Virus record (IMG/VR): IMGVR_UViG_3300043399_000562
Location: 1-61,311 of that record
DNA length: 61,311 nucleotides
Source of the DNA: a virus
Taxonomy: Duplodnaviria; Caudoviricetes
Reading direction: 5' to 3' (one strand)
Below, piece by piece: positions 20,175 through 54,353 of this stretch; position 1 is the stretch's first letter, and every line of letters starts with the position of its first letter. A model generated the notes under the pieces. The model saw only the letters and a program-made list of their open reading frames with translations. It was not told the origin of the DNA and did not search any database. The translations under genes and the position numbers were made by a program.

Positions 20175-22577
20175 ATGGCAAACGCCGACTATCAAACCGT
20201 CGCCACAGGCAACTTCTCGCAGATCGCGAGGGTCACCTCGTTCATCAGCAGGACGGCCACCTCGATCTCGATCACCGACGTGCGTGACATCGAGGGTGAT
20301 GGGCCGGCACAGGGCGACCTCGTGCTGCTGAACGACGAGTTCATGCAGATCACCTCGGTCGGAGTGACGTCGTGGGGTGTCAAGCGTGGATGCCTCGATA
20401 CGATCCCCCAAGAGCACGCCATCGGATCGAACGCGTTCATCGTCCGCACGGGGTCGATTGGCACGGACAGGCGCGAGTACCTCGGTACGGAGACGATCTC
20501 GCTCAAGGTGCTGCCGAAGACGCCTGGCGGTGCCACGCCAATCGAATACGCGCCTCCGAATCAGTTGACGTTCGGGCAGCGGTTCGCTCGTCCATATCCG
20601 CCCGCACAGGTCAAGGCGAACTACAACCATTGGGGTCTGCCGACAATCATCAGTTCCAGCGTCCCGCTGATCCTGACGTGGGTCGATCGCAATCGCGTGC
20701 TGCAGGCCGACTCCGTTCTCGGCCACAACGATGCCGGTGTGACGCCCGAGGATGGCGTCGAGTACGTCATTCGTCTTTACACGGCCGGTGGCACTCTGGT
20801 GAAGACCGTCACGGTCATCAACGAAAACAGGTGGACCTATTCATGGCAGGAAATGGGCACCGACTTCAACCTCGGGGCGATCGGTGGCGGCGGGATCTAT
20901 GAAGCCTATCTGACACTGCACGCAAAGCGTGACGGGTTCGAATCGAGGCAGTTCTATAGGGTGAACTTCGCGCGCTATCTGAACGAGATCCCGAACGTCG
21001 ATTCGACGCCTTCGGTACTACTTATCAGATTCACAGGAAACGAAGGATCGACGTCGGCTACCGATGAGAGCGGGCAATCAACGCCAATTCAGTTCGTCGG
21101 CGACGCGAAGATAACGAAGCAAGTCGCTTCGTTCCAGAACGGCAGTCTGGTGATACCGAATCCGGCAAGTTTCGTTCGGCTAGGCAACGTCGGACAAGTG
21201 CCTGCAAATATCTACAACGCGCTGCAGTCGAATTCTTGGACCATCGAGGGCTTCGCGACAGTCGATGCTCCGGACGCAGGAGGGGTTCTATTCTCAGTGG
21301 AACTTGACCCGGTCGTTGGTCCGCCGGACTTCGCGATCTATGTCAACATCCAGACCGGAAACATCTTGATGTACAGGGCAGGATCGCTTTTCTTGCCCAA
21401 CACCACGACACGGGATAGAGCACCTGCTCCCGGTCAAAGATTTCACTGGGCAGTGGTGTGCGAAAGCATTAGCCCGGGCGTCAATAAGATGCGCTGGTTC
21501 ATCAATGGCCAAAGCATGATGACGCGACGGGATGGGCTGACCTACTTCGACTGGGATTACTGGAGCAACTCGGCACCTTCGATCGGTCATGTGCGTATTG
21601 GTAGAGCGTCAAACGGTACATGGGCGAACGGCTCATTTTCTGCCATCGGAAGCATCAAGATCTCGAACACGGCGAAGTACACGGGTCCCTACACTGCGAT
21701 CAATTCTGGCGGCACATCGTTCGTGTTTCCGGCAGATTTCACCCCTCCGAGCGACTTCGCGCCAAATACCCCATCGATTCCAAACGTCGACACGACGCCT
21801 TCAGTGCTTCTCTTGCGTTTTCAAGGTACTGAGGGATCTACGGCAACCGTCGATGAAAGCGGGAACAGCATTCCGGTAGCTTTCTTCAATAACGCCATCG
21901 TTACGCGCACGCTACCTGTCTTTCCAAACGGCTCGCTCGTTCTGCCATCACCTCCCCCACCTTCACCTAAGAGTTATTTGAAGATCGGTTCGGGCTCTCA
22001 AGTGCCGAGCCAGATCAGCAGTGCGTTCGCATCAGGTTCATGGACCATAGAAGGCTTTGCAAGCGTCGGATCTTCCGAAAACACCTACATGACGGTGTTT
22101 GCACTTCAAGATCTATCTGGAGGTGTTACCGGAAAGCCCGAATTTGCGATTGCTGTTGGGGCGCAGAACAGTAACCCGAACATTGTCATCTACTTCTATG
22201 GTTCTCTCTACTTGCCGAGAACTGTGACTCGATTGCCTGCGCCTAATCGCAATAAGCGATTCCATTGGGCGGTGGTCTGCGACGAAGGAAAGATGCGCTG
22301 GTTCATTGATGGCAAGAGCCTAATTGCGAGACTGGACGGACTTAACGCTTACGATTGGGACTACATGGGAGCACCGGGGCTGACAACCGGAGAGTTGCTC
22401 ATCGGAGCTTCGGCAACCGGCATCTGGTCCGAAACATCCCAGTCAGGAATCGGGGCTGTGAAGATTTCAAACTCGGCGAAATACACCGGGTCGTACGTGA
22501 AGATCAATCCAGACGGACAAACTTACACTTACAACGCGGACTTCACACCACCAGACGATTTCGCGCCTGCTCCATGA
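20175..22577 (+). CDS. Tail tip C-terminal part / receptor-binding protein with two tandem LamG/ConA-like domains
   Basis: VKRGCLDTIPQEH, RPYPP, WVDRNR; then two copies of IPNVDxTPSVLLxRF...WTIEGF...ADFTPP. Confidence 0.8.
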   Translation: MANADYQTVATGNFSQIARVTSFISRTATSISITDVRDIEGDGPAQGDLVLLNDEFMQITSVGVTSWGVKRGCLDTIPQEHAIGSNAFIVRTGSIGTDRREYLGTETISLKVLPKTPGGATPIEYAPPNQLTFGQRFARPYPPAQVKANYNHWGLPTIISSSVPLILTWVDRNRVLQADSVLGHNDAGVTPEDGVEYVIRLYTAGGTLVKTVTVINENRWTYSWQEMGTDFNLGAIGGGGIYEAYLTLHAKRDGFESRQFYRVNFARYLNEIPNVDSTPSVLLIRFTGNEGSTSATDESGQSTPIQFVGDAKITKQVASFQNGSLVIPNPASFVRLGNVGQVPANIYNALQSNSWTIEGFATVDAPDAGGVLFSVELDPVVGPPDFAIYVNIQTGNILMYRAGSLFLPNTTTRDRAPAPGQRFHWAVVCESISPGVNKMRWFINGQSMMTRRDGLTYFDWDYWSNSAPSIGHVRIGRASNGTWANGSFSAIGSIKISNTAKYTGPYTAINSGGTSFVFPADFTPPSDFAPNTPSIPNVDTTPSVLLLRFQGTEGSTATVDESGNSIPVAFFNNAIVTRTLPVFPNGSLVLPSPPPPSPKSYLKIGSGSQVPSQISSAFASGSWTIEGFASVGSSENTYMTVFALQDLSGGVTGKPEFAIAVGAQNSNPNIVIYFYGSLYLPRTVTRLPAPNRNKRFHWAVVCDEGKMRWFIDGKSLIARLDGLNAYDWDYMGAPGLTTGELLIGASATGIWSETSQSGIGAVKISNSAKYTGSYVKINPDGQTYTYNADFTPPDDFAPAP

Positions 22578-22651
22578 GGCCAAGACTGGCTACCAAGTTG
22601 TAACGTACACTTACGCGCGCTGTATGCCCGAACGGTACAAAGGAGAACCAG

Positions 22652-22774
22652 ATGTGGACTCATGTCATGAACGCAGTGGCCGATGCGATCGACTGGATGG
22701 GCTGGCGTCTGGTCAAGTTGGCCGACAGTGTCCGTCCTGCGGGTGGCGGTGGGCCGGGTGGCGTGATCCGCTGA
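22652..22774 (+). CDS. 40-aa small protein at the start of the lysis block
   Basis: AAGGAG SD; MWTHVMNAVADAIDWMGWRLVKLADSVRPAGGGGPGGVIR (hand translation). Confidence 0.6.
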   Translation: MWTHVMNAVADAIDWMGWRLVKLADSVRPAGGGGPGGVIR

Positions 22775-22778
22775 AGTC

Positions 22779-23141
22779 GTGTGGCGCGACTGCGTGACCG
22801 TCGCTCTGGCCGCGTTCGCGTACCTCGGCTACTACAGGTGGTCAGATCCGATCGAGCGGGCTTGGGTCAGCTACATCGGGTGTGCGGTCCTGACGGTGTG
22901 GCTCGTGTGGCAGCAGACGGGTCGCAGGACTTGGGTGGGTTTGTTCGGGATCTTCTACATCACGTTCGAGGGGGCACAGCAGGCAACTTGCGGCTACTTC
23001 GAGTTTGGGACCGTACCTGACGGTCAAGACATCTGCGTGCGGCTTGTCGGTGAAGAGGTGTACCGGGCAGCCATGTCCATCATCCTCGCAGTCATCTTCA
23101 CCGGAGCGATCAAATGGCAGAACCGACAGTCGGAAAAGTGA
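22779..23141 (+). CDS. Membrane protein
   Basis: Several hydrophobic segments. Confidence 0.6.
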   Translation: MWRDCVTVALAAFAYLGYYRWSDPIERAWVSYIGCAVLTVWLVWQQTGRRTWVGLFGIFYITFEGAQQATCGYFEFGTVPDGQDICVRLVGEEVYRAAMSIILAVIFTGAIKWQNRQSEK

Positions 23142-23485
23142 GTGCGCTGGCACTGCTGGCCGCAACACTCGGGCCGGTCTGGGGCGAGTACGCATTCATC
23201 CTTGCGGGCGCCTTCATCGGCGGGTATGCCGGACTCTCGCTGTACCCGGAACGCAAGGACGGGTTCACCAAGCCACTCGTCCACGTCCTGACGGGCATCG
23301 GGCTCGCCTTGATGCTCACCCCAGCAGGCGCAGTCATCGCGTCCAACGCATTGCCCCAGGCGTGGAAGTTCACGGCAGACCTCGCACTACCCGTGATCGC
23401 AGTCGCCATCGGAGCCTTCTGGCATCCGGCCCTCACCCGGTGGATTCCGGCCTTGTTCAACAGGACGACGGGGACTGGCAAATGA
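23114..23485 (+). CDS. Putative holin-like membrane protein
   Basis: 3-4 hydrophobic segments; GGAG SD; upstream of the endolysin. Confidence 0.6.
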   Translation: MAEPTVGKVSALALLAATLGPVWGEYAFILAGAFIGGYAGLSLYPERKDGFTKPLVHVLTGIGLALMLTPAGAVIASNALPQAWKFTADLALPVIAVAIGAFWHPALTRWIPALFNRTTGTGK

Positions 23486-23904
23486 TCGGTGAAGTCGCGC
23501 AGTTGGCAGTCGGGGCGATAGGCGCCTATGTCGCGGGCCGTGCGGCAAACAACCATGTACGGGGCACGCCACTGTCACACAGGCTGCTCGCATCAACGCT
23601 CGGATCGGCATCGTTGATGATCTTCATCGCAGTGCCGATTCAGCATTTGACGGAGACACACGATGCAACTCTCGGCCAACTTCAGTCTGGACGAGTTCTG
23701 TCGCAGCAGCACGGCAACTCGGTTGGGGATCACGAACTACCTACCTGCCGACCTGCTTGGGAACGCGAAGCAGACCGCCGAGATGCTCGAACGGATTCGT
23801 GCCCACCTGAGCAAGCTGGCGGGAAAGCCGATCCCGATGATCATCACCTCGGGCTACCGCTGCTTCGCCCTGAATCGCCGTCTGGGCAGCAGCGACAGCA
23901 GTGA
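23482..23904 (+). CDS. Small membrane protein overlapping the endolysin 5' end
   Basis: ATGA overlap with the previous stop; two hydrophobic segments; long 3' overlap is doubtful. Confidence 0.45.
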   Translation: MIGEVAQLAVGAIGAYVAGRAANNHVRGTPLSHRLLASTLGSASLMIFIAVPIQHLTETHDATLGQLQSGRVLSQQHGNSVGDHELPTCRPAWEREADRRDARTDSCPPEQAGGKADPDDHHLGLPLLRPESPSGQQRQQ

Positions 23905-24136
23905 TCACGTCCAGGCCCTCGCTGCGGACTGGGAAGCGCCGGCCTTCGGCAGTCCGACCGACGTATGCCGAGCCCTTCAGCCGATGGTCGAGTTCCTCAA
24001 GATCGGACAACTGATCAACGAGTACCCCGACCGCGACGGTTGGGTGCACACCAGCGTCAAGCTGCCCGCCAAGACCATCAATCGGGTGATCACGATCACC
24101 GGACGTGGCACCAACGTCGGAATCATGGGGGCATGA
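23663..24136 (+). CDS. Endolysin, peptidase M15A family
   Basis: LSANFSLDEF, ITSGYRC..LN, SDH..ALAAD, WVH. Confidence 0.9.
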   Translation: MQLSANFSLDEFCRSSTATRLGITNYLPADLLGNAKQTAEMLERIRAHLSKLAGKPIPMIITSGYRCFALNRRLGSSDSSDHVQALAADWEAPAFGSPTDVCRALQPMVEFLKIGQLINEYPDRDGWVHTSVKLPAKTINRVITITGRGTNVGIMGA

Positions 24137-24137
24137 G

Positions 24138-24668
24138 ATGAACTGGAAGGACGCTGCTCAGACCCTCGCCAAGATCGGCCTTCCGTTGCTGGGCGCCGCG
24201 TTGCCGCTGCCAGGCGGCATGGCCCTCGGAGCCTCGCTTGCCGCTCACATCGGCGCCAAGGAAACGACTGTCGATGGGGTCGTAAACGCCCTCATCGGCA
24301 ACGAAGAAGCTCGTCAGAAGGCAGTCGAGTTTCAGGCGATGCACAACGAGCGCATGACCAACATGGTCATGAAGCACGAACTCGACATGTACCAGTCTGC
24401 GAATCAGGACCGTGCGAGCGCCCGGTCTGGAAACGTGGCCTCGGGCATGAACGAGAAGTTGTTCTGGCTGACATGCGTGCTGTTGATCATCACGCTGGGC
24501 TGCGAGGCGGCAGTGCTGTTCATGGGAATCCCGAGCGGAGCAAACGAGTTCGTGATCGGTCGCGTACTCGGTCTGCTCGACTCGATCACCCTTAGTCTGC
24601 TGGCCTACTGGTTCGGCTCGTCGCTCGGCTCGTCGATGAAGAACGACTGGAAGCCGACGAAGGTTTGA
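24138..24668 (+). CDS. Holin-like protein
   Basis: DRASAR, two hydrophobic segments, YWFGSSLGS. Confidence 0.75.
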   Translation: MNWKDAAQTLAKIGLPLLGAALPLPGGMALGASLAAHIGAKETTVDGVVNALIGNEEARQKAVEFQAMHNERMTNMVMKHELDMYQSANQDRASARSGNVASGMNEKLFWLTCVLLIITLGCEAAVLFMGIPSGANEFVIGRVLGLLDSITLSLLAYWFGSSLGSSMKNDWKPTKV

Positions 24669-24770
24669 TGGGGCTGTTTACCGCACTACCTTTCATGCCG
24701 ACTTCAAGTTGGCGCGGCCAAACGCATTCCAAAAGCGGTTCTGTTTCGGTCTAGGCTTCGGCCCTAAAAG

Positions 24771-24857
24771 GATGCCACGTATGGCAGTTGGTGGTTACAG
24801 GTGGCAAGGAGTTGCCATAGATGGCAAGGCGGGCGTTCTGCCTATATGGCGTTAGGC
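24771..24857 (+). mobile_element. attI-like integron site
   Basis: GCCTATA-TGGC-GTTAGGC simple site with no R'' partner; several TGGCA/TGCCA repeats upstream. Confidence 0.4.
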
Positions 24858-25070
24858 CCCATCTCGCAAGCCTCGCAAAAGCTCGATGCACTCTGCTTTT
24901 GTCAGGTTGTACGGGCTTGAGTTCAAGTGCTGAATTGCGAGCGTCAGCCCGTACTGCGCTTCCACATGGCCGGGGCGTTGTGCTGCTGGTTTCCTTGCTT
25001 CGCGCTCTGCCTTTGTCGGCACAAGGCTGCCCCAACCGGCGCCGTCTTCTATCTCTCCGCGCCAGCTCAT
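24852..25070 (-). CDS. Hypothetical cassette-borne protein
   Basis: Stop TAA lies within the complement of GTTAGGC; ATGA-coupled to the upstream gene. Confidence 0.65.
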   Translation of the reverse strand: MSWRGEIEDGAGWGSLVPTKAEREARKPAAQRPGHVEAQYGLTLAIQHLNSSPYNLTKAECIELLRGLRDGA

Positions 25071-25255
25071 GCGGCACCTCGCAGCAGGCCCATCGCTTCC
25101 CAGATCTTCCGGCAGGCGTACTGCGCGGGCACGGCCTCGGCCTCTTCTTGCTCGTCCTCGAACGTGTCAAGGTAGCTGTCGGCCGTGGCTTCGAGCGCAT
25201 CGAACGCCTGTTGCAGCAGGCTCAGGGCTTGTTGGGTTTGTGCGTCAGCTTTCAT
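25067..25255 (-). CDS. Hypothetical acidic cassette-borne protein
   Basis: MKADAQ... with GAGGA SD. Confidence 0.6.
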   Translation of the reverse strand: MKADAQTQQALSLLQQAFDALEATADSYLDTFEDEQEEAEAVPAQYACRKIWEAMGLLRGAA

Positions 25256-25388
25256 CGTCTTCCTCTGCGTGGTCATCAAGGTCAAACACTTCTCCGCAGG
25301 CTGCGCAGCGTTGCAGCCGGTCGTCCTGCGGGTCGTCTTCATCGTCGTACTGGTACACGGTCTTGCAACCGCACTTTGGGCATGCCAT
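25245..25388 (-). CDS. 47-aa zinc-ribbon protein (CxxC...CxxC), cassette-borne
   Basis: MACPKCGCKTVYQYDDEDDPQDDRLQRCAACGEVFDLDDHAEEDDES; GGAG SD (hand translation). Confidence 0.65.
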   Translation of the reverse strand: MACPKCGCKTVYQYDDEDDPQDDRLQRCAACGEVFDLDDHAEEDDES

Positions 25389-25413
25389 CGTCTGCGCGCT
25401 CCGGGTAAGTGGG

Positions 25414-25471
25414 GCCTAACACTTCGCTCAAGCCGACAGCCTACGGCTGCGGCTGAATCCCGACGTTAGGC
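25414..25471 (+). mobile_element. Integron attC site (58 bp)
   Basis: R'' GCCTAAC - 5 nt - L'' GCTCAAGC - stem-loop - L' GCTGAAT - 6 nt - R' GTTAGGC. Confidence 0.85.
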
Positions 25472-25729
25472 CCCTCGAATCGCATCACGTACTTCGCGCA
25501 GTGCATCCATCGTCCATTCGGCGGCCAGTTCGCCGGCTGCGCTGTTGCCGACCGGAACTCGATGCGCTTCCACAATCCGCGCGCACCGCTCACGCTCTGC
25601 AGCCTCTACAGCGGCAAGCCCTGCCAGCACTTCGCGCGAGATATTTGTCCGCAGTTGCTGGGTGTTCCCGTACTCCAGTGCAATCCACGCCAGCCGGCTT
25701 ACAAGCTCTCGCTTCTCGTGATCTTTCAT
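25466..25729 (-). CDS. Hypothetical cassette-borne protein
   Basis: AERERCARIVE phage-type motif; GGAG SD; stop within R'. Confidence 0.75.
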   Translation of the reverse strand: MKDHEKRELVSRLAWIALEYGNTQQLRTNISREVLAGLAAVEAAERERCARIVEAHRVPVGNSAAGELAAEWTMDALREVRDAIRGA

Positions 25730-25750
25730 TTCGTGCTCCGTTCACCAATG

Positions 25751-25841
25751 GCCTAACGTCAGCAGTAAGCCGAAAGCGCCGGCAGGCGTGCTCAGTGTGG
25801 CTTCCTACTCGGGGCGCTTCGGCTTACTGCTGACGTTAGGC
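25751..25841 (+). mobile_element. attC-like site (91 bp) with symmetric arms
   Basis: GCCTAACGTCAGCAGTAAGCCGAA...TTCGGCTTACTGCTGACGTTAGGC. Confidence 0.7.
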
Positions 25842-26099
25842 GCCAGGTGGCGTCGGCAGTGGCATCCAATGCGTCGGCGGTACTGGGTCGGGATCAGCAT
25901 CCGAAAGCAACTCGTCGGCCCACACCCAAAGGGCGTATCCATCGCCTTCAACCCACTTCATGCGGGCCTGTTCGCCGTTGTAGGCCCAAACCTCAGAACC
26001 GTCTTGCGGCGCAGTCTCGATTGGCTGCCAAGCGCAGATCGTCTCAAACCCTGCTTGCGCCACAGCGGCCAATGGCGGGTATGTCTTCTGCCATTCCAT
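25836..26099 (-). CDS. DUF551-like phage protein
   Basis: WQPIETAPQDG...PTHWMPLP; stop within R'. Confidence 0.8.
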   Translation of the reverse strand: MEWQKTYPPLAAVAQAGFETICAWQPIETAPQDGSEVWAYNGEQARMKWVEGDGYALWVWADELLSDADPDPVPPTHWMPLPTPPGA

Positions 26100-26115
26100 A
26101 TTCACACCTCTGACT

Positions 26116-26247
26116 TCAGAAGGGCGCATCGACCCACTCTCGTTTAGGTTTACGCCTTGTCCGAGGCTTGGGCAGCGGCTGACCTTTCCAAGTGGGAAAC
26201 GGCCATTCCTTCGGAGGGCTCGGTTCCTGTTTAGTCGGACTCGCCAT
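26116..26247 (-). CDS. Small basic protein
   Basis: GGAGG SD; WPFPTWKG. Confidence 0.55.
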   Translation of the reverse strand: MASPTKQEPSPPKEWPFPTWKGQPLPKPRTRRKPKREWVDAPF

Positions 26248-26774
26248 CACAACCACCTCCCAAGTAGTTGAAAGAAGCGATAGCGATACTTCGTTCGGTT
26301 CCACGAAGCCACACCGGCCCTGTCCATCGCTTCGGCTGTGCTATTGCCAGCAAGCAACCCTTCGATGAACGTCTGGCCGTTCGGCTTCAGCTTCGACGCC
26401 ACGTACTGCAAGGCCCGCAGTATGTGGGAGTAGGTAGATGCGTCGCCAACATCAGGACGATCGGCGAGATCGAACTCGATGCCTTCGACTAGAGCGTATG
26501 TCGTGGCTGATCGACCATTGCGGGACAGGCCAATGTGCTCGTGCCACTCTTTGCGGATGTAGTCCTGCATGGCACCGAGTGCTCGACGCGAAATGTAGTT
26601 CGCACGGTGTGCGGGATCTTCCGGTACTCGATCTTCAGCGAACGCTTCGACGATCGCCAGTCGTCCGACCTGTCGCAGTTCTTCGATGTCGTAGGCGGGA
26701 TGGCGCCGTGTGAACTGCAGCGCAATTCGGGCGCTGCGTACTATCAGCAACTCCGTTTCAGCGTCGAAGACCAC
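26247..26774 (-). CDS. Sigma-70-like (region 2 plus C-terminal helical domain) transcription factor
   Basis: DIEELRQVGRLAIVEA...YISRRALGAMQDYIRK; start uncertain. Confidence 0.6.
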   Translation of the reverse strand: MVFDAETELLIVRSARIALQFTRRHPAYDIEELRQVGRLAIVEAFAEDRVPEDPAHRANYISRRALGAMQDYIRKEWHEHIGLSRNGRSATTYALVEGIEFDLADRPDVGDASTYSHILRALQYVASKLKPNGQTFIEGLLAGNSTAEAMDRAGVASWNRTKYRYRFFQLLGRWL

Positions 26775-27351
26775 AGCCAACCCCACAGGCCGCAGCCACG
26801 GCGGCAAAGGACAACAGAAGCCCATCCGGCTCGTTCACGGTGCGCATTGCCAAGTCGGGTGCTACCTCGAACTGAGGAACGGCTTCGATTCGGCGCTCGG
26901 CCGAGAAGATGTTGTTGCAGACGTAAGGTGACCCGACGCAGTTCGCCTTGACGCACCAGACCCGTGTTGCCTCGGTGTGATTCTCGGGCCAGTCCACTCG
27001 GGATACACATGCGGCCTTCGAGCCGCGACCAAAGTGCATGCCTTGAACATCGGTAACGAACACCGACGTGCCGCTGGACATGATTCCGCGTTTCGTGATC
27101 TCGGTGATGAAGTCCGGTGGCGTGAATAGGACGCGGGCCTGCAGTGCGACTCGCGTCGTCAAGTCGATGTGCTTGTAAGACCAGATGGCCATCAACGTCG
27201 AGCCGGTAAACCTGTTCTGGCCCGGGTTGTTCCACGAGGCGCACTCGCGTTCATCCTTGGCAAAGGCCGACAGCGTCAGAAGGCCGGCAGACAGCAGCAC
27301 GATCGTGTAGAGGGCCGCACGTACGGCCAGCCTGCGAATCACAGGATGCAT
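26758..27351 (-). CDS. MHFG-family PEP-CTERM protein
   Basis: Signal peptide, CASWNNPG, MHFG, PYVCNN, C-terminal VNEP + hydrophobic stretch + RR. Confidence 0.7.
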   Translation of the reverse strand: MHPVIRRLAVRAALYTIVLLSAGLLTLSAFAKDERECASWNNPGQNRFTGSTLMAIWSYKHIDLTTRVALQARVLFTPPDFITEITKRGIMSSGTSVFVTDVQGMHFGRGSKAACVSRVDWPENHTEATRVWCVKANCVGSPYVCNNIFSAERRIEAVPQFEVAPDLAMRTVNEPDGLLLSFAAVAAACGVGCGLRR

Positions 27352-27560
27352 AGCAGCTTCTCCTTGGCCTTGTCCCGCTTGGGTAGTGGCGCCCATGCGA
27401 TCAGGCCAGCATCGTCTTTCCAGCGACCCCGCACGCAGATGCCGCCGATTGTCAGAAGATGAACGTCGGCACCACCGGGCGGCTTCGGATCGCCCGCACC
27501 TGGGTAGAGGTACGTGCTGCCGCCAGCGACATAATCGACGAGCCTTACGGGTGTCGTCAT
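27339..27560 (-). CDS. Hypothetical protein
   Basis: LLTIGGICVRGRW...AWAPLPKR phage-type sequence. Confidence 0.65.
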   Translation of the reverse strand: MTTPVRLVDYVAGGSTYLYPGAGDPKPPGGADVHLLTIGGICVRGRWKDDAGLIAWAPLPKRDKAKEKLLCIL

Positions 27561-27784
27561 TGGCTTTGCCCTTGGTCGATGCGACTCGACCACCAGATCA
27601 AGATGGCCGAGACGAGAAGCCAGCACATCGTGCTGAAGATCAACATGCCCAGTGCCTCGGAGACACTGAGGGTCGCGAAAGACTTGGCCGCGATGCACCC
27701 AAGGATGGCCATGCCGATCACGTCGAAGTACGAGAACTTCGTCTCGACGACGAATCGGTAGACGCTGCTGCGAATGCTGCTCAC
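27557..27784 (-). CDS. Small membrane protein
   Basis: Two hydrophobic segments; overlap-coupled. Confidence 0.6.
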   Translation of the reverse strand: MSSIRSSVYRFVVETKFSYFDVIGMAILGCIAAKSFATLSVSEALGMLIFSTMCWLLVSAILIWWSSRIDQGQSQ

Positions 27785-28077
27785 TTGCTGGTTCCTTCCT
27801 GCAGACGGGCTTCAGCCTTCAGGGCCGCGTACGCAACGCAGTCCTCCAAGCTGTCTCGATGCGGCTCGACCCGCTGACGATCGCGCACGTCCTTGAGGAT
27901 CTGCAGAAGCAGCCAGCCCTCGGACTCGGACAGGTCACGGCCGGTGATGACGTTGAACGCCTGGACCGTCTTGCCCATTGATCGCTCGCCCTCGGGGCGG
28001 TCGTACGTGGATGCCCGATCGCGCATGTGCTTGGCAGCGGCTTCGAGAATTGTCGGTGCGTACGGAGCGGCGTTCAT
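27781..28077 (-). CDS. DUF6378-like protein
   Basis: RASTYD..GERSM...GWLL...LK..R...HRDSLEDCVAYAAL. Confidence 0.7.
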   Translation of the reverse strand: MNAAPYAPTILEAAAKHMRDRASTYDRPEGERSMGKTVQAFNVITGRDLSESEGWLLLQILKDVRDRQRVEPHRDSLEDCVAYAALKAEARLQEGTSK

Positions 28078-28238
28078 AGCTCAGAGTCCTCTCGGGCCTT
28101 CTGGTGAGTGGCAAAGATCCACCCGTTCATCCAGACGACCCACTTGTAGATGTCAGGTGGGTACGGGCAAGCGTCTGGCGGCTTGCCCGATCGGGCAGCA
28201 TCTGCGCCTTGCTGCCAGACGCTGCTGCCGTGGCTCAC
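28074..28238 (-). CDS. 54-aa Rmf/CrpP-like small protein
   Basis: WQQGADAARSGKPPDACPY...WMNGW; GTGA and ATGA overlaps (hand translation). Confidence 0.65.
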   Translation of the reverse strand: MSHGSSVWQQGADAARSGKPPDACPYPPDIYKWVVWMNGWIFATHQKAREDSEL

Positions 28239-28516
28239 AGTTCGTCGTCATCGTCCAGGTCGGACGACGCTGCAGCCTTCTTGGCAGGCACCGCCTTCTT
28301 CTCGGGCGCGGCCTTCTTCGGCGGTGCCGACACGAGGCGGCTTCGCTCGATGTGGGCACACAGCGCAGCCTTGATATCGTCGAACTGCGACTCTTCCCAG
28401 AACATCGCACGCTTGTCGCGCTCGATCGGCTCGATGCCGAGATCTTCGGAGATGAACTTCGCCGAGATGTTCAGGCCAATGGAGGACTGAATTTGGGGGA
28501 GGGTGATGTTGGGCAT
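28235..28516 (-). CDS. Small protein with K/A-rich tail
   Basis: Has its own sigma70 promoter; ends DDDDEL. Confidence 0.75.
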   Translation of the reverse strand: MPNITLPQIQSSIGLNISAKFISEDLGIEPIERDKRAMFWEESQFDDIKAALCAHIERSRLVSAPPKKAAPEKKAVPAKKAAASSDLDDDDEL

Positions 28517-28556
28517 GGGGGCCTTTCGTTGCTGTCAGACGCTGCTGACGGTGTGG

Positions 28557-28585
28557 ATGATAGGTCGCGACAGGTGACGAGTCAA
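28557..28585 (-). promoter_or_regulatory. Sigma70 promoter
   Basis: TTGACT-17-TATCAT on the minus strand. Confidence 0.7.
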
Positions 28586-28597
28586 CAGAATGTGGAA

Positions 28598-29290
28598 TCA
28601 AAGTTCGTCGTCATCGTCCTGAACTGCCGGCTTTTTCGGCGGTTCATTTTGCACTTTCGATGCTGATTTTTTCACCAGATCAGCGGGTTTTTTGCCACCC
28701 GTGGCATCGCGGATGGCAGACCAGGCTGCAATCATCACCTTGGCCTGATGCATCGCATCGTCCAGCGCGTTGTGGTGCGTACCCTCGCGCTTCACGCTGT
28801 CCATGTTGAAGTCCACGAGCGACTCGGCTGCATCGATGAGCGTGCGCATGTCGCGGATCTTCCAGTAGGCCCCGGACCAAGGGGGCTCAAGGCCAACGCT
28901 GCCCACGTCGATCGAGTGCTCGATCAGCGTGATGTCGAACGTCGCCCCGTTGCCCCATGGGCGCGGGCAACCAAGGCTGCGGACGAACGTGACGAAGTTC
29001 AGCATTGCGCTCGGCAAGGCCATCTTTCGTTCCCGAGCGGCATCACCAGTCTCGAAGATCCGCTGTGCCCCCTTCGCCTGCGTGATCCACCAGGCGATCG
29101 TGCTTGCGCTCGGCTTGCAATGCTTGATGGCTGAGTCCGGGTCGATCTCCTGATAGAAGGTCGGGCCGACCTTGCCGGTGTCGCGGTTGAAGGCTACGGC
29201 TCCCACGCTCAGGATCGGGGCGTTGTACTTCGTGCCGAGTGTCTCTAGGTCGATCGACACATCGGTCCACGGGAACGGATTGGTGCTCAT
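28598..29290 (-). CDS. 3'-5' exonuclease (DEDDh, exonuclease VIII-associated type)
   Basis: IDLETLG, WGNGATFD, RDMRT, HNALDDA. Confidence 0.85.
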   Translation of the reverse strand: MSTNPFPWTDVSIDLETLGTKYNAPILSVGAVAFNRDTGKVGPTFYQEIDPDSAIKHCKPSASTIAWWITQAKGAQRIFETGDAARERKMALPSAMLNFVTFVRSLGCPRPWGNGATFDITLIEHSIDVGSVGLEPPWSGAYWKIRDMRTLIDAAESLVDFNMDSVKREGTHHNALDDAMHQAKVMIAAWSAIRDATGGKKPADLVKKSASKVQNEPPKKPAVQDDDDEL

Positions 29291-53339: not shown

Positions 53340-54353
53340 TTACGCAGCAAGTAGCTGCCTTTCCCGCTCGATCAACGACTCGGGCCGCACATGCGTGTAG
53401 CGACGTAGCATCTTCCAGTCTCGGTGCCCGCTCACTAGCGCAACCTCGTGGATCTGAAACCCCGCCTCGAACATGCGGGTTATGCCTTCGTGGCGCAGAT
53501 CGTGAAGCACGACGTCCAGCACACCGGCCTTGACGGCAGAGTCGTGAAAGACCTTGCTCACATACATGGGATTGAGCGGCCAGATCCGCTTGTCTTGTCT
53601 TGGCAAGGTCAACAGCAGTTCGAACGAGCCCTGTAGCAGCGGTACATGCTGGTGGTTGCCGAACTTGCGCGTTGGGTGCTTCCTATCCCTGACAAGCACT
53701 GTCCTGTTCTCGATGTTCAGGTCGTCCCAGGTAATGCGGCAGACCTCACCGATCCGCATGCACGTCCATAGGCAGAAGTCTAGAAGTGCGGGGCCGTGGC
53801 CACGAAACCGCTTGGCCAGCTTCGACTTGATGGCTGTCAACTCCACATTGCTGACTCTGCGGTTTCGCTCGTTGGGACGACGTAGGTAGCCGCCGTCGAA
53901 GAGTTGTGCCTTAGACCGCTCGATGTCCTTCCATGGCACATCGATGCCCCAGTGGTACTCGGCCTGCTTCAGCACCCCGCACAGACGCGCTATGTGCCAG
54001 TAGGCAGTGCTGCCACTGACATCAGTCTGCTTGAGCACCCAGTCGATGAGGCCGCGTCCATGAAGGTCGGCTAGGGTTACTCCGTCGAACCTGTTCTTGA
54101 TTGAAGGGATGTCATGGGCGAGATGAGACGCGGCCATTTGGCGCTTCGGCCCGATCTCCGTCGCGTATCGATCGATGAGGTGTGTCAGCGACAAGCGACG
54201 ACTCGATACATCGATCGCTTCCAGATTCATTTCAACTTCGCGAATCCACTTCTTCGCCTCTTTGGCGGTTTCGAACGTCTTGCTCTGTTGGGGGTGGCCG
54301 GCCTTCCGAACCAGTGCTCTGAACTTCCCACCCCTGTTGACGATGGTTCCCAT
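53340..54353 (-). CDS. int: Tyrosine integrase
   Basis: MRIGE, HDLRHE, SGH..W..L.RY catalytic residues. Confidence 0.93.
   Translation of the reverse strand: MGTIVNRGGKFRALVRKAGHPQQSKTFETAKEAKKWIREVEMNLEAIDVSSRRLSLTHLIDRYATEIGPKRQMAASHLAHDIPSIKNRFDGVTLADLHGRGLIDWVLKQTDVSGSTAYWHIARLCGVLKQAEYHWGIDVPWKDIERSKAQLFDGGYLRRPNERNRRVSNVELTAIKSKLAKRFRGHGPALLDFCLWTCMRIGEVCRITWDDLNIENRTVLVRDRKHPTRKFGNHQHVPLLQGSFELLLTLPRQDKRIWPLNPMYVSKVFHDSAVKAGVLDVVLHDLRHEGITRMFEAGFQIHEVALVSGHRDWKMLRRYTHVRPESLIERERQLLAA

Follow-up and report, generated by a model that had tools for sequence, protein, structure and literature searches.

Integrons are bacterial gene-capture devices, and their cassettes have recently been shown to store anti-phage defences. 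Here, we describe cassette-like units bounded by predicted attC sites in an accessory operon of a phage genome that encodes no recognizable integron integrase (IntI). The genome, IMGVR_UViG_3300043399_000562, is a 61,311-base record that CheckV rates as complete, with direct terminal repeats and a G+C content of 59.7%; we refer to this whole stretch as the window. Clusters of attC sites that lack an integron integrase (CALINs) have been reported in phages before: Qi et al. (2023) described 17 CALINs among 10,705 genomes, phage CALINs included, and IntI1 recombined five of the six phage-borne attC sites tested (PMC9892861). Because phage CALINs have been published, the basic claim is not new; a cassette array in a phage is already on record as such, and the locus in the window is a further case. 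Those phage CALINs and ours have in common at least two attC sites, the lack of IntI and DNA methyltransferase cargo (here in related arrays), but the main text of that paper leaves the orientation of genes relative to attC sites undiscussed, whereas the genes are antisense here and arrays reach up to 16 sites (PMC9892861). The general antisense layout, together with the anti-restriction cargo of related arrays, is the new part. Literature searches, mostly outside subscription journals, returned nothing on reversed phage cassettes or on DUF551 together with attC sites, and a term search of bioRxiv 2024.07.02.601686 gave no mention of either.

Two other systems bear comparison. In bacteria, IntI inserts cassettes at secondary genomic sites with a GWT consensus, and in E. 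coli this insertion is reported to show no bias with respect to transcription or replication (Loot et al., bioRxiv 2022.09.11.507474). Like the single attC sites lacking integron integrases (SALINs) and small CALINs described in that preprint, the phage locus has neither IntI nor attI and carries a bare G^TT (the caret marking the cut point) at one end and a full attC site at the other. However, those elements lie in bacterial chromosomes and are unbiased, whereas the phage sites are strongly biased; because of this difference, selection or another mechanism or origin must act. Inversion of the Vibrio cholerae superintegron was reported to raise both attC folding and cassette excision (Richard et al. 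2024; PMC13108822). That system is engineered and bacterial, and the parallel assumes that transcription of the phage genes is co-directional with the replication fork. With an antisense attC site, the recombinogenic bottom strand becomes the non-template strand; under co-directional replication it would also lie on the lagging-strand template, the configuration in which folding and excision were raised.

Two predicted attC sites delimit reversed cassette-like units

The inverted cores R'' GCCTAAC and R' GTTAGGC, which fit the consensus RYYYAAC and GTTRRRY, are present at two palindromes of the locus. The pair GCCTAAC...GTTAGGC with a gap of 30-60 nucleotides (nt) occurs only once in the window, at positions 25414-25471 (site 1), and in 0 of 100 shuffled sequences. 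Widening the gap to 30-110 nt added a second core pair, at 25751-25841 (site 2), with 0 matches for the reversed-pattern control. GTTAGGC alone is present in six copies per 61,311 bases (shuffle mean 3.0; 7 of 100 shuffles reached six), and five of the six fall within 24851-25841. When folded as single-stranded DNA, site 1 gave z scores of -6.1 (plus strand) and -6.4 (minus strand) and site 2 gave -8.3 and -9.2 for its two strands, with no shuffle as stable in either case. In the bottom-strand fold of site 1, the R box is paired, the spacer is left unpaired, and two T residues bulge out on the 3' arm.

Rfam holds no attC family and yielded only chance-level matches in 23500-27500; we therefore built a covariance model of our own. 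A seed scan with the R''-L'' motif of site 1 against one genome per species returned at least 152 stretches. Model R1 comprised 54 short sites with a structure written by hand, and scored true bacterial array sites at about 28-93 bits. Model R2, which is our own and not that of IntegronFinder, comprised 69 sites from 32 loci gathered with R1, 29 with the exact seed motif and 40 without it. Run over the whole phage genome with filters off, R2 scored site 1 at 52.3 bits (E 6e-11) on the plus strand versus 15.3 bits on the minus strand; for site 2, the plus strand reached 38.3 bits (E 3e-7) versus 30.6 bits. The plus strand is favoured by 37 and 7.7 bits, respectively. The next best site in the 61-kb genome scored 14.2 bits (E 0.59), and only seven matches reached E 10. 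Both sites align over the full length of R2 (positions 1-60), with ungapped spacing between R and L boxes save for one inserted base at site 2.

In a blastn search of plasmids, site 1 weakly matched Tn7 class 2 integrons at the attC site that closes sat2 (76% identity over 56 nt, E 7), a match that serves as a lead only. Against this sat2 attC read on its coding strand, the plus strand of site 1 aligned with a score of 26, as compared with 11 for the other strand. Both palindromes are, as judged from cores, folds and model scores, genuine attC sites: one of the 60-bp aadA/sat2-like type and one a long-loop variant. This agrees with the initial annotation, which had read the first as an aadA-type attC site and the second as attC-like. 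A third GTTAGGC core, at 24851, had been listed there beside them. The core is present and forms the left boundary of the array, but it is a lone junction-type core rather than a third attC site: R2 found no match there even at E 10, and the stretch around and to its left (24771-24862) reached a z score of only -2.1, with no attC-like hairpin.

With the plus strand as top, the G^TT cut points lie at 24851/24852, 25465/25466 and 25835/25836, and the proposed division into one unit of three genes (24852-25465) and one of a single gene (25466-25835) holds, with boundaries that match both the cores and the open reading frames (ORFs). Each unit opens with TTAGGC after G^TT, and each gene, stop codon included, lies wholly within its own unit. 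All five genes, encoding proteins of 72, 62, 47, 87 and 97 amino acids (aa), are on the minus strand, that is, on the bottom strand of the attC sites. The three ORFs whose products are 72, 87 and 97 aa long terminate at 24852, 25466 and 25836, using the bases that come right after the G^TT cut, and their stop codon is therefore the complement of the TTA that follows the G in GTTAGGC, as had been noted from the sequence. The canonical cassette order, in which the gene shares the top strand of its attC site and precedes it, is absent from the locus, and the recombinogenic bottom strand of each attC site is the coding (mRNA-sense) strand. The initial description of a mirror image of ordinary cassettes was right about the reversed order, as seen from the ORFs and from the strand preferred by R2, and the layout is no curiosity of this one locus: it recurs across the phage attC sites that we sampled.

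No integron integrase could be recognized, as the initial annotation had stated: the best match to TIGR02249 in the 61-kb record reached 23.5 bits, far from the cut-off of 265, and fell within the ordinary tyrosine integrase of the phage. Since the phage encodes this integrase of its own (53340-54353), it is probably temperate. With intI missing, the locus is not a complete integron, in which an intI gene with its IntI-specific domain adjoins attI and a cassette promoter. The stretch at 24771-24851 might in principle be attI-like; attI sites have no general model in common. It has two attC sites on the plus strand, 280 bp apart, and no IntI in the whole record; two same-strand attC sites without intI constitute a CALIN under the published definition (bioRxiv 030866). 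We classify the locus, from its sequence features, as a two-site CALIN in a complete, probably temperate phage.

The cargo consists of small genes. Those of unit 1 (72, 62 and 47 aa) overlap and are translationally coupled, the start of the 62-aa gene overlapping the end of the 47-aa gene. The 47-aa protein scored 23.1 bits against Zn_ribbon_4, below the cut-off of 30.3, and its matches to other zinc-ribbon families were likewise below cut-off. The 87-aa protein of unit 2, which we call the AERERCA protein, matched PHROG families of unknown function and had 45 viral and 158 metagenome relatives (best 80 of the 158 kept). The assignment of the 97-aa protein to DUF551 was borne out at 24.0 bits (cut-off 22); its closest homologue (72% identity, locus L204) has no attC site at all and a longer C-terminal tail. 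R2 found no attC site on the start side of the DUF551 gene. A decayed attC site at 26040-26130, to the right of this gene, was considered and rejected, having sequence resemblance alone and no R2 match. The 72-, 91-, 47- and 62-aa cargo proteins had no tblastn match in 408 loci. Coordinates of all features are collected in the table.

Features of the phage locus and of related arrays (positions in the window unless a locus is named)
Feature	Position	Strand	Basis or remark
attC site 1, 58 nt, top strand is the plus strand	25414-25471	+	Covariance model R2, core pair, fold
attC site 2, 91 nt, long terminal loop	25751-25841	+	Covariance model R2, core pair, fold
Lone R'-type core GTTAGGC, left array boundary	24851-24857	+	No partner hairpin, no R2 match
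Cassette-like unit 1, from TTAGGC start through attC site 1 to its G	24852-25465	+	Three minus-strand genes
Cassette-like unit 2, TTAGGC start, 87-aa gene, attC site 2 to its G	25466-25835	+	One minus-strand gene
72-aa gene, no known family	24852-25070	-	Stop is complement of TTA 24852-24854
62-aa acidic protein gene, no family	25067-25255	-	Internal ATG at 25255 of the 91-aa ORF 25067-25342
47-aa zinc-ribbon protein gene, acidic tail	25245-25388	-	phrog_10675; start 25 nt from attC site 1
87-aa gene (AERERCA protein)	25466-25729	-	Stop is complement of TTA 25466-25468
DUF551 gene, 97 aa	25836-26129	-	Stop is complement of TTA 25836-25838; opens next stretch
Terminator-like hairpin followed by T run	24773-24786	-	Terminator scan; 65 nt downstream of last gene of the leftward operon
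M15 endolysin of lysis module	23663-24136	+	Pfam/PHROG profile searches
187-aa protein of lysis module	ends 24668	+	ORF list
Ordinary phage tyrosine integrase, not an integron integrase	53340-54353	-	PF00589 2.7e-19, phrog_1
attC ranges of phage genome G001, in locus L283	1519-4681; 8415-12060	+; -	R2
Contigs with the shared attC core of about 50 bp	L237, L028, L284, L285, L299, L311, L345, L352, L367, L391, L393

Antisense orientation across phage and metagenome arrays

In 79 viral loci with DUF551 homologues (545 kb), R2 found 20 attC matches, 18 of which lay opposite to the gene strand. The 45 viral loci with AERERCA homologues (311 kb) gave three matches, all three opposite to the gene strand, and the 80 metagenome loci with AERERCA homologues (255 kb) gave 59, with 58 on the opposite strand; the sole exception among these 59 also matched on the opposite strand. 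An earlier hairpin scan of the 45 AERERCA loci, which required perfectly complementary cores, had returned spurious pairs only.

We also assembled a sample that was independent of cargo by scanning viral contigs with the attC motif alone, which yielded at least 128 stretches and 142 motif matches. A strict hairpin check was passed by 39 of the 142 matches (35 unique), and the 103 failing matches were left out. For the 24 sites with enough flanking sequence, we took the two longest ORFs on each strand, or 96 ORFs. PHROG families (E <=1e-5) were matched by 20 of 48 antisense ORFs and 1 of 48 sense ORFs, and Pfam families by 10 of 48 and 1 of 48, respectively, the sense match to Pfam falling below its cut-off. 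The complete phage genome G001 gave PHROG families for 5 of 15 antisense and 0 of 13 sense ORFs, and four metagenome arrays gave families for 12 of 75 and 0 of 71. By contrast, in the bacterial control arrays, Pfam families were matched by 8 of the 74 forward ORFs and by none of the 69 reverse ones. Genes supported by a family were therefore antisense in 20 of 21 (PHROG) and 10 of 11 (Pfam) cases in the viral sample, 12 of 12 in the metagenome arrays and 5 of 5 in G001, and sense in 8 of 8 cases in the bacterial controls.

Called by the longest ORF, cassettes of the bacterial controls were forward in 105 of 125 cases, with 6 reverse and 14 unclear. The corresponding calls by ORF length within cassette limits for phage arrays (3 forward, 7 reverse and 7 unclear) are uninformative because reversed ORFs often run some codons into the neighbouring attC site. 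A count free of homology was obtained by looking for a Shine-Dalgarno-like motif with a start codon, either pointing away from the R'' side or reading on after R'. It gave 23 versus 1 for 34 viral motif sites, 36 versus 0 for 50 sites in phage and metagenome arrays and 2 versus 0 for the two sites in the window, as compared with 9 versus 20 for 94 bacterial sites. By family matches and start signals alike, the reversed orientation is the rule among the phage and phage-like sequences sampled.

The only sense gene with family support beside a viral attC site is a helix-turn-helix (HTH) repressor-like gene in locus L361 (1518-1787, minus strand). Its stop codon lies within the TAA of R'', and it converges on the antisense gene that lies across the site.

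Related phage arrays and bacterial integrons

DUF551 homologues in other phage records lie between antisense attC sites. One of them is in G001 (the source of locus L237; locus L283 is G001:C1:26000-40000), a phage genome of 42,527 bp that is complete, has terminal repeats and encodes no IntI. G001 has 14 attC sites in two divergent operons, with each site antisense to its operon: ten on the plus strand in the minus-strand operon and four on the minus strand in the plus-strand operon. The ribosome-binding site (RBS) and ATG of the DUF551 gene lie inside the terminal loop of an attC site in L237 (3884-4006), L261 (447-548), L215 (1-89) and L248 (3918-4012), and in these four sequences the complement of R'' is translated as an N-terminal stretch of DUF551 just before the conserved WQPIETAP motif. 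The 6.2-kb metagenome contig L416, which may be of phage or bacterial origin, carries 16 attC sites, all antisense to small genes; proteins for Lar-like restriction alleviation and for Mom-like DNA modification are among those it encodes. Genes beside the sampled phage sites encode endolysin, head morphogenesis, RNase H and HNH proteins as well as many modification and anti-restriction types, namely N6_N4 methyltransferases, Mom-like and Lar-like proteins, dATP/dGTP pyrophosphohydrolase, RNA ligase and radical SAM proteins.

In 11 different viral contigs, one attC core of about 50 bp is near-identical and the genes to either side of it are unrelated; a DNA methyltransferase gene lies close to it in 3 of the 11. 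The contigs cease to resemble one another right after GTT at one end of the core and ahead of CTAAC at the other, so that the triplets required by IntI are kept while the flanks are free. The two sites in the window are unlike each other, and site 2 has no look-alike in 488 loci.

Among the at least 152 stretches found with the seed motif, many are arrays with a spacing of 300-700 bp in Luteimonas, Arenimonas, Xanthomonas, Lysobacter, Thermomonas and Burkholderiales, and IntI scored above the curated cut-off in four of five array genomes tested. In genome G006, IntI adjoins the array and is transcribed divergently from it, which fixes the canonical orientation of these arrays. The motif family is present in 47 of 401 genomes of the order to which genome G007 belongs, with one match for the reversed control and up to 22 copies per array; the phage sites thus resemble those of the likely host clades. 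By these resemblances, the phage attC sites belong to a family that is also carried by the sedentary chromosomal integrons of Lysobacterales/Xanthomonadales and Burkholderiales. Both sets share R'' GCCTAAC and an L'' of the TCAAGCCGAC type, occur as attC sites of 57-60 nt or with a long loop, and have cassettes that open with TTAGGC. Unlike the phage locus, the bacterial arrays have an adjacent IntI and sense genes whose stop codon usually lies in the TAA of R'', and they carry immunity proteins, glyoxalase, beta-lactamase and the like, whereas the phage locus carries phage genes.

Two bacterial arrays deserve mention in their own right. At G581:C1:988495-997731, in a bacterial genome of the same order as G007, one strand bears 22 motif copies, and those listed span about 9 kb; presumably, this array is a chromosomal integron whose attC sites share the family of the phage ones. 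In a Lysobacteraceae control array (L061, 130-1269, minus strand), a sense cassette encodes a class C-type beta-lactamase family protein (PF00144, 9e-54).

Setting of the locus and search for variants

The locus sits at the junction of the plus-strand lysis module and the tail end of a long operon of small minus-strand genes. Just to the left of the lone core, where the intergenic region separates convergent genes, inverted and direct TGCCA/TGGCA repeats cluster at 24773-24830, and one of them doubles as the terminator-like hairpin; the cluster might be a protein-binding site, a putative role only.

Searching with blastn, we found no match to 22000-29000 in phage records. The 192-aa and 187-aa neighbour proteins had no relatives in viral contigs, nor did the 192-aa protein in metagenome contigs, and the 30-nt left intergenic stretch had no exact match in viral contigs. 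Two runs of a freshwater sample contain the stretch and may be where it came from, and four wastewater runs contain small parts of it; no RNA run was listed among them. The region of the 47-aa gene (about 25255-25404) recurs in several different contigs of wastewater runs X3-X5 at a summed contig depth of up to about 365, and one wastewater contig with the 47-aa gene has a different attC-like sequence in place of site 1. A 3.5-kb wastewater contig aligns piecewise, up to 24868 and then over 25269-25404, 25431-25475 and 25580-25757, which suggests a related array with other content.

Weighing the explanations

Taken by its sequence, the locus is a small representative of the widespread class of phage-borne attC sites at gene boundaries and antisense to transcription. 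We put at about 65% the reading that these are genuine attC sites in a phage accessory operon without IntI, and that the units are predicted to have arrived, and to be exchangeable, by way of an integron integrase of the host. A circle of two units would have inserted at a secondary G^TT site at or near the stop codon of the last gene of the operon; such an insertion would leave a lone GTTAGGC core on the left and a complete attC site on the right, the arrangement found in this phage. Recombination between attC sites would then swap or delete whole genes with gene-boundary precision. We infer the dependence on IntI, the insertion route and present-day activity.

Several observations weigh against this reading. 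The folded bottom strand of an attC site has, as a rule, an extrahelical G and T on its R''/L'' arm. Site 1 lacks the usual bulged G, and site 2 is atypical, with an almost perfect 30-bp stem, a single bulged T and no unpaired central spacer; by published rules, site 2 may be a poorer or less strand-selective substrate. The seeds of R2 were found through a motif copied from site 1, so that the score of site 1 arises partly by construction; site 2 is without that motif. The cargo is of phage type and was absent by tblastn from the 152 bacterial array loci. A host search with the 563-aa first ORF (23-1714) gave no match in 301 genomes of each of two orders and so identified neither the host nor, hence, any host IntI. 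No recombination event was observed, and no close relative was found in the phage, viral and metagenome searches. Over the parts that they cover, public contigs, which drop rare variants, are not joined at any of the G^TT cores, and the piecewise 3.5-kb wastewater contig breaks at 24868 rather than at 24851. Finally, a near-identical attC core adjoins unrelated genes in 11 viral contigs, and a gene and its attC site are therefore not always a conserved unit; in chromosomal integrons, likewise, one attC type accompanies many different genes.

The main rival is a role at the RNA level that is coupled to transcription: the hairpins would derive from attC sites but now be kept for mRNA stability, processing or translational coupling, and would no longer be recombined. 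That attC orientation tracks transcription in both divergent operons of G001, that stop codons lie in the R' core while other phages have the RBS and start of the next gene in the attC loop, and that site 2 is an almost perfect 30-bp stem would all follow from such a role. It would not account for why AAC/GTT triplets, L boxes and the bulges on one arm, the very parts that matter to IntI, are conserved while the flanks diverge right after GTT. Nor does it fit well with the arraying of the same attC families in integrons of the likely host orders (47 of 401 genomes, up to 22 copies) or with the reported recombination of phage attC sites by IntI1 in experiment (PMC9892861), and we consider it unlikely.

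Phage genomes are mosaic at gene boundaries, and the near-identity of the core of about 50 bp in contigs with unrelated genes would suit short shared linkers, through which general or phage-encoded homologous recombination swaps modules between co-infecting phages with no integrase involved. The two window sites are dissimilar and site 2 is without a counterpart in the loci searched, and linkers would leave both the strict strand asymmetry and the IntI-specific conservation unexplained; this explanation strikes us as quite improbable. Stable G+C-rich hairpins between genes could also be plain intrinsic terminators, the alternative named in the initial annotation, or chance palindromes. The terminator scan, however, flags neither site, neither is followed by a T run, and the operon has a terminator-like hairpin elsewhere (24786-24773); chance is at odds with the absence of the core pair (gap 30-60 nt) from all 100 shuffles and with the E-values from R2. 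We find either version hardly credible.

A bolder extension of the host-integrase reading is that phages of integron-bearing bacteria keep a cassette pool of their own, in which host IntI, induced by the SOS response that infection sets off, shuffles or exchanges accessory and counter-defence genes within one infection, with breakpoints at gene boundaries. Under this proposal, genes for Lar-like and Mom-like proteins, methyltransferases and nucleotide pyrophosphohydrolases would be separated by attC sites of host type, and the bottom strand, always coding and hence non-template, would be in the 'inverted', highly recombinogenic configuration. We offer it tentatively, as possible but rather doubtful. 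If it is true, the occurrence of a shared attC core beside unrelated genes would mean that new cassettes are made on phage DNA.

Implications

Integron pipelines that assume sense cassettes would mis-annotate the cargo of antisense arrays. The fixed orientation provides a handle on how strand, transcription and replication control the folding of attC sites, and the recurrence of a single attC core next to a variety of unrelated phage genes is relevant to how cassettes originate, an unsolved question. Our results suggest a phage-side mirror image of the defence-storing bacterial integron, in which host-type attC sites punctuate accessory operons with anti-restriction and DNA-modification genes, in a fixed orientation that is the reverse of the bacterial one. 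Should host IntI act on these phage attC sites, counter-defence genes would be swapped in a site-specific manner, and gene traffic to and from bacterial integrons would be possible.

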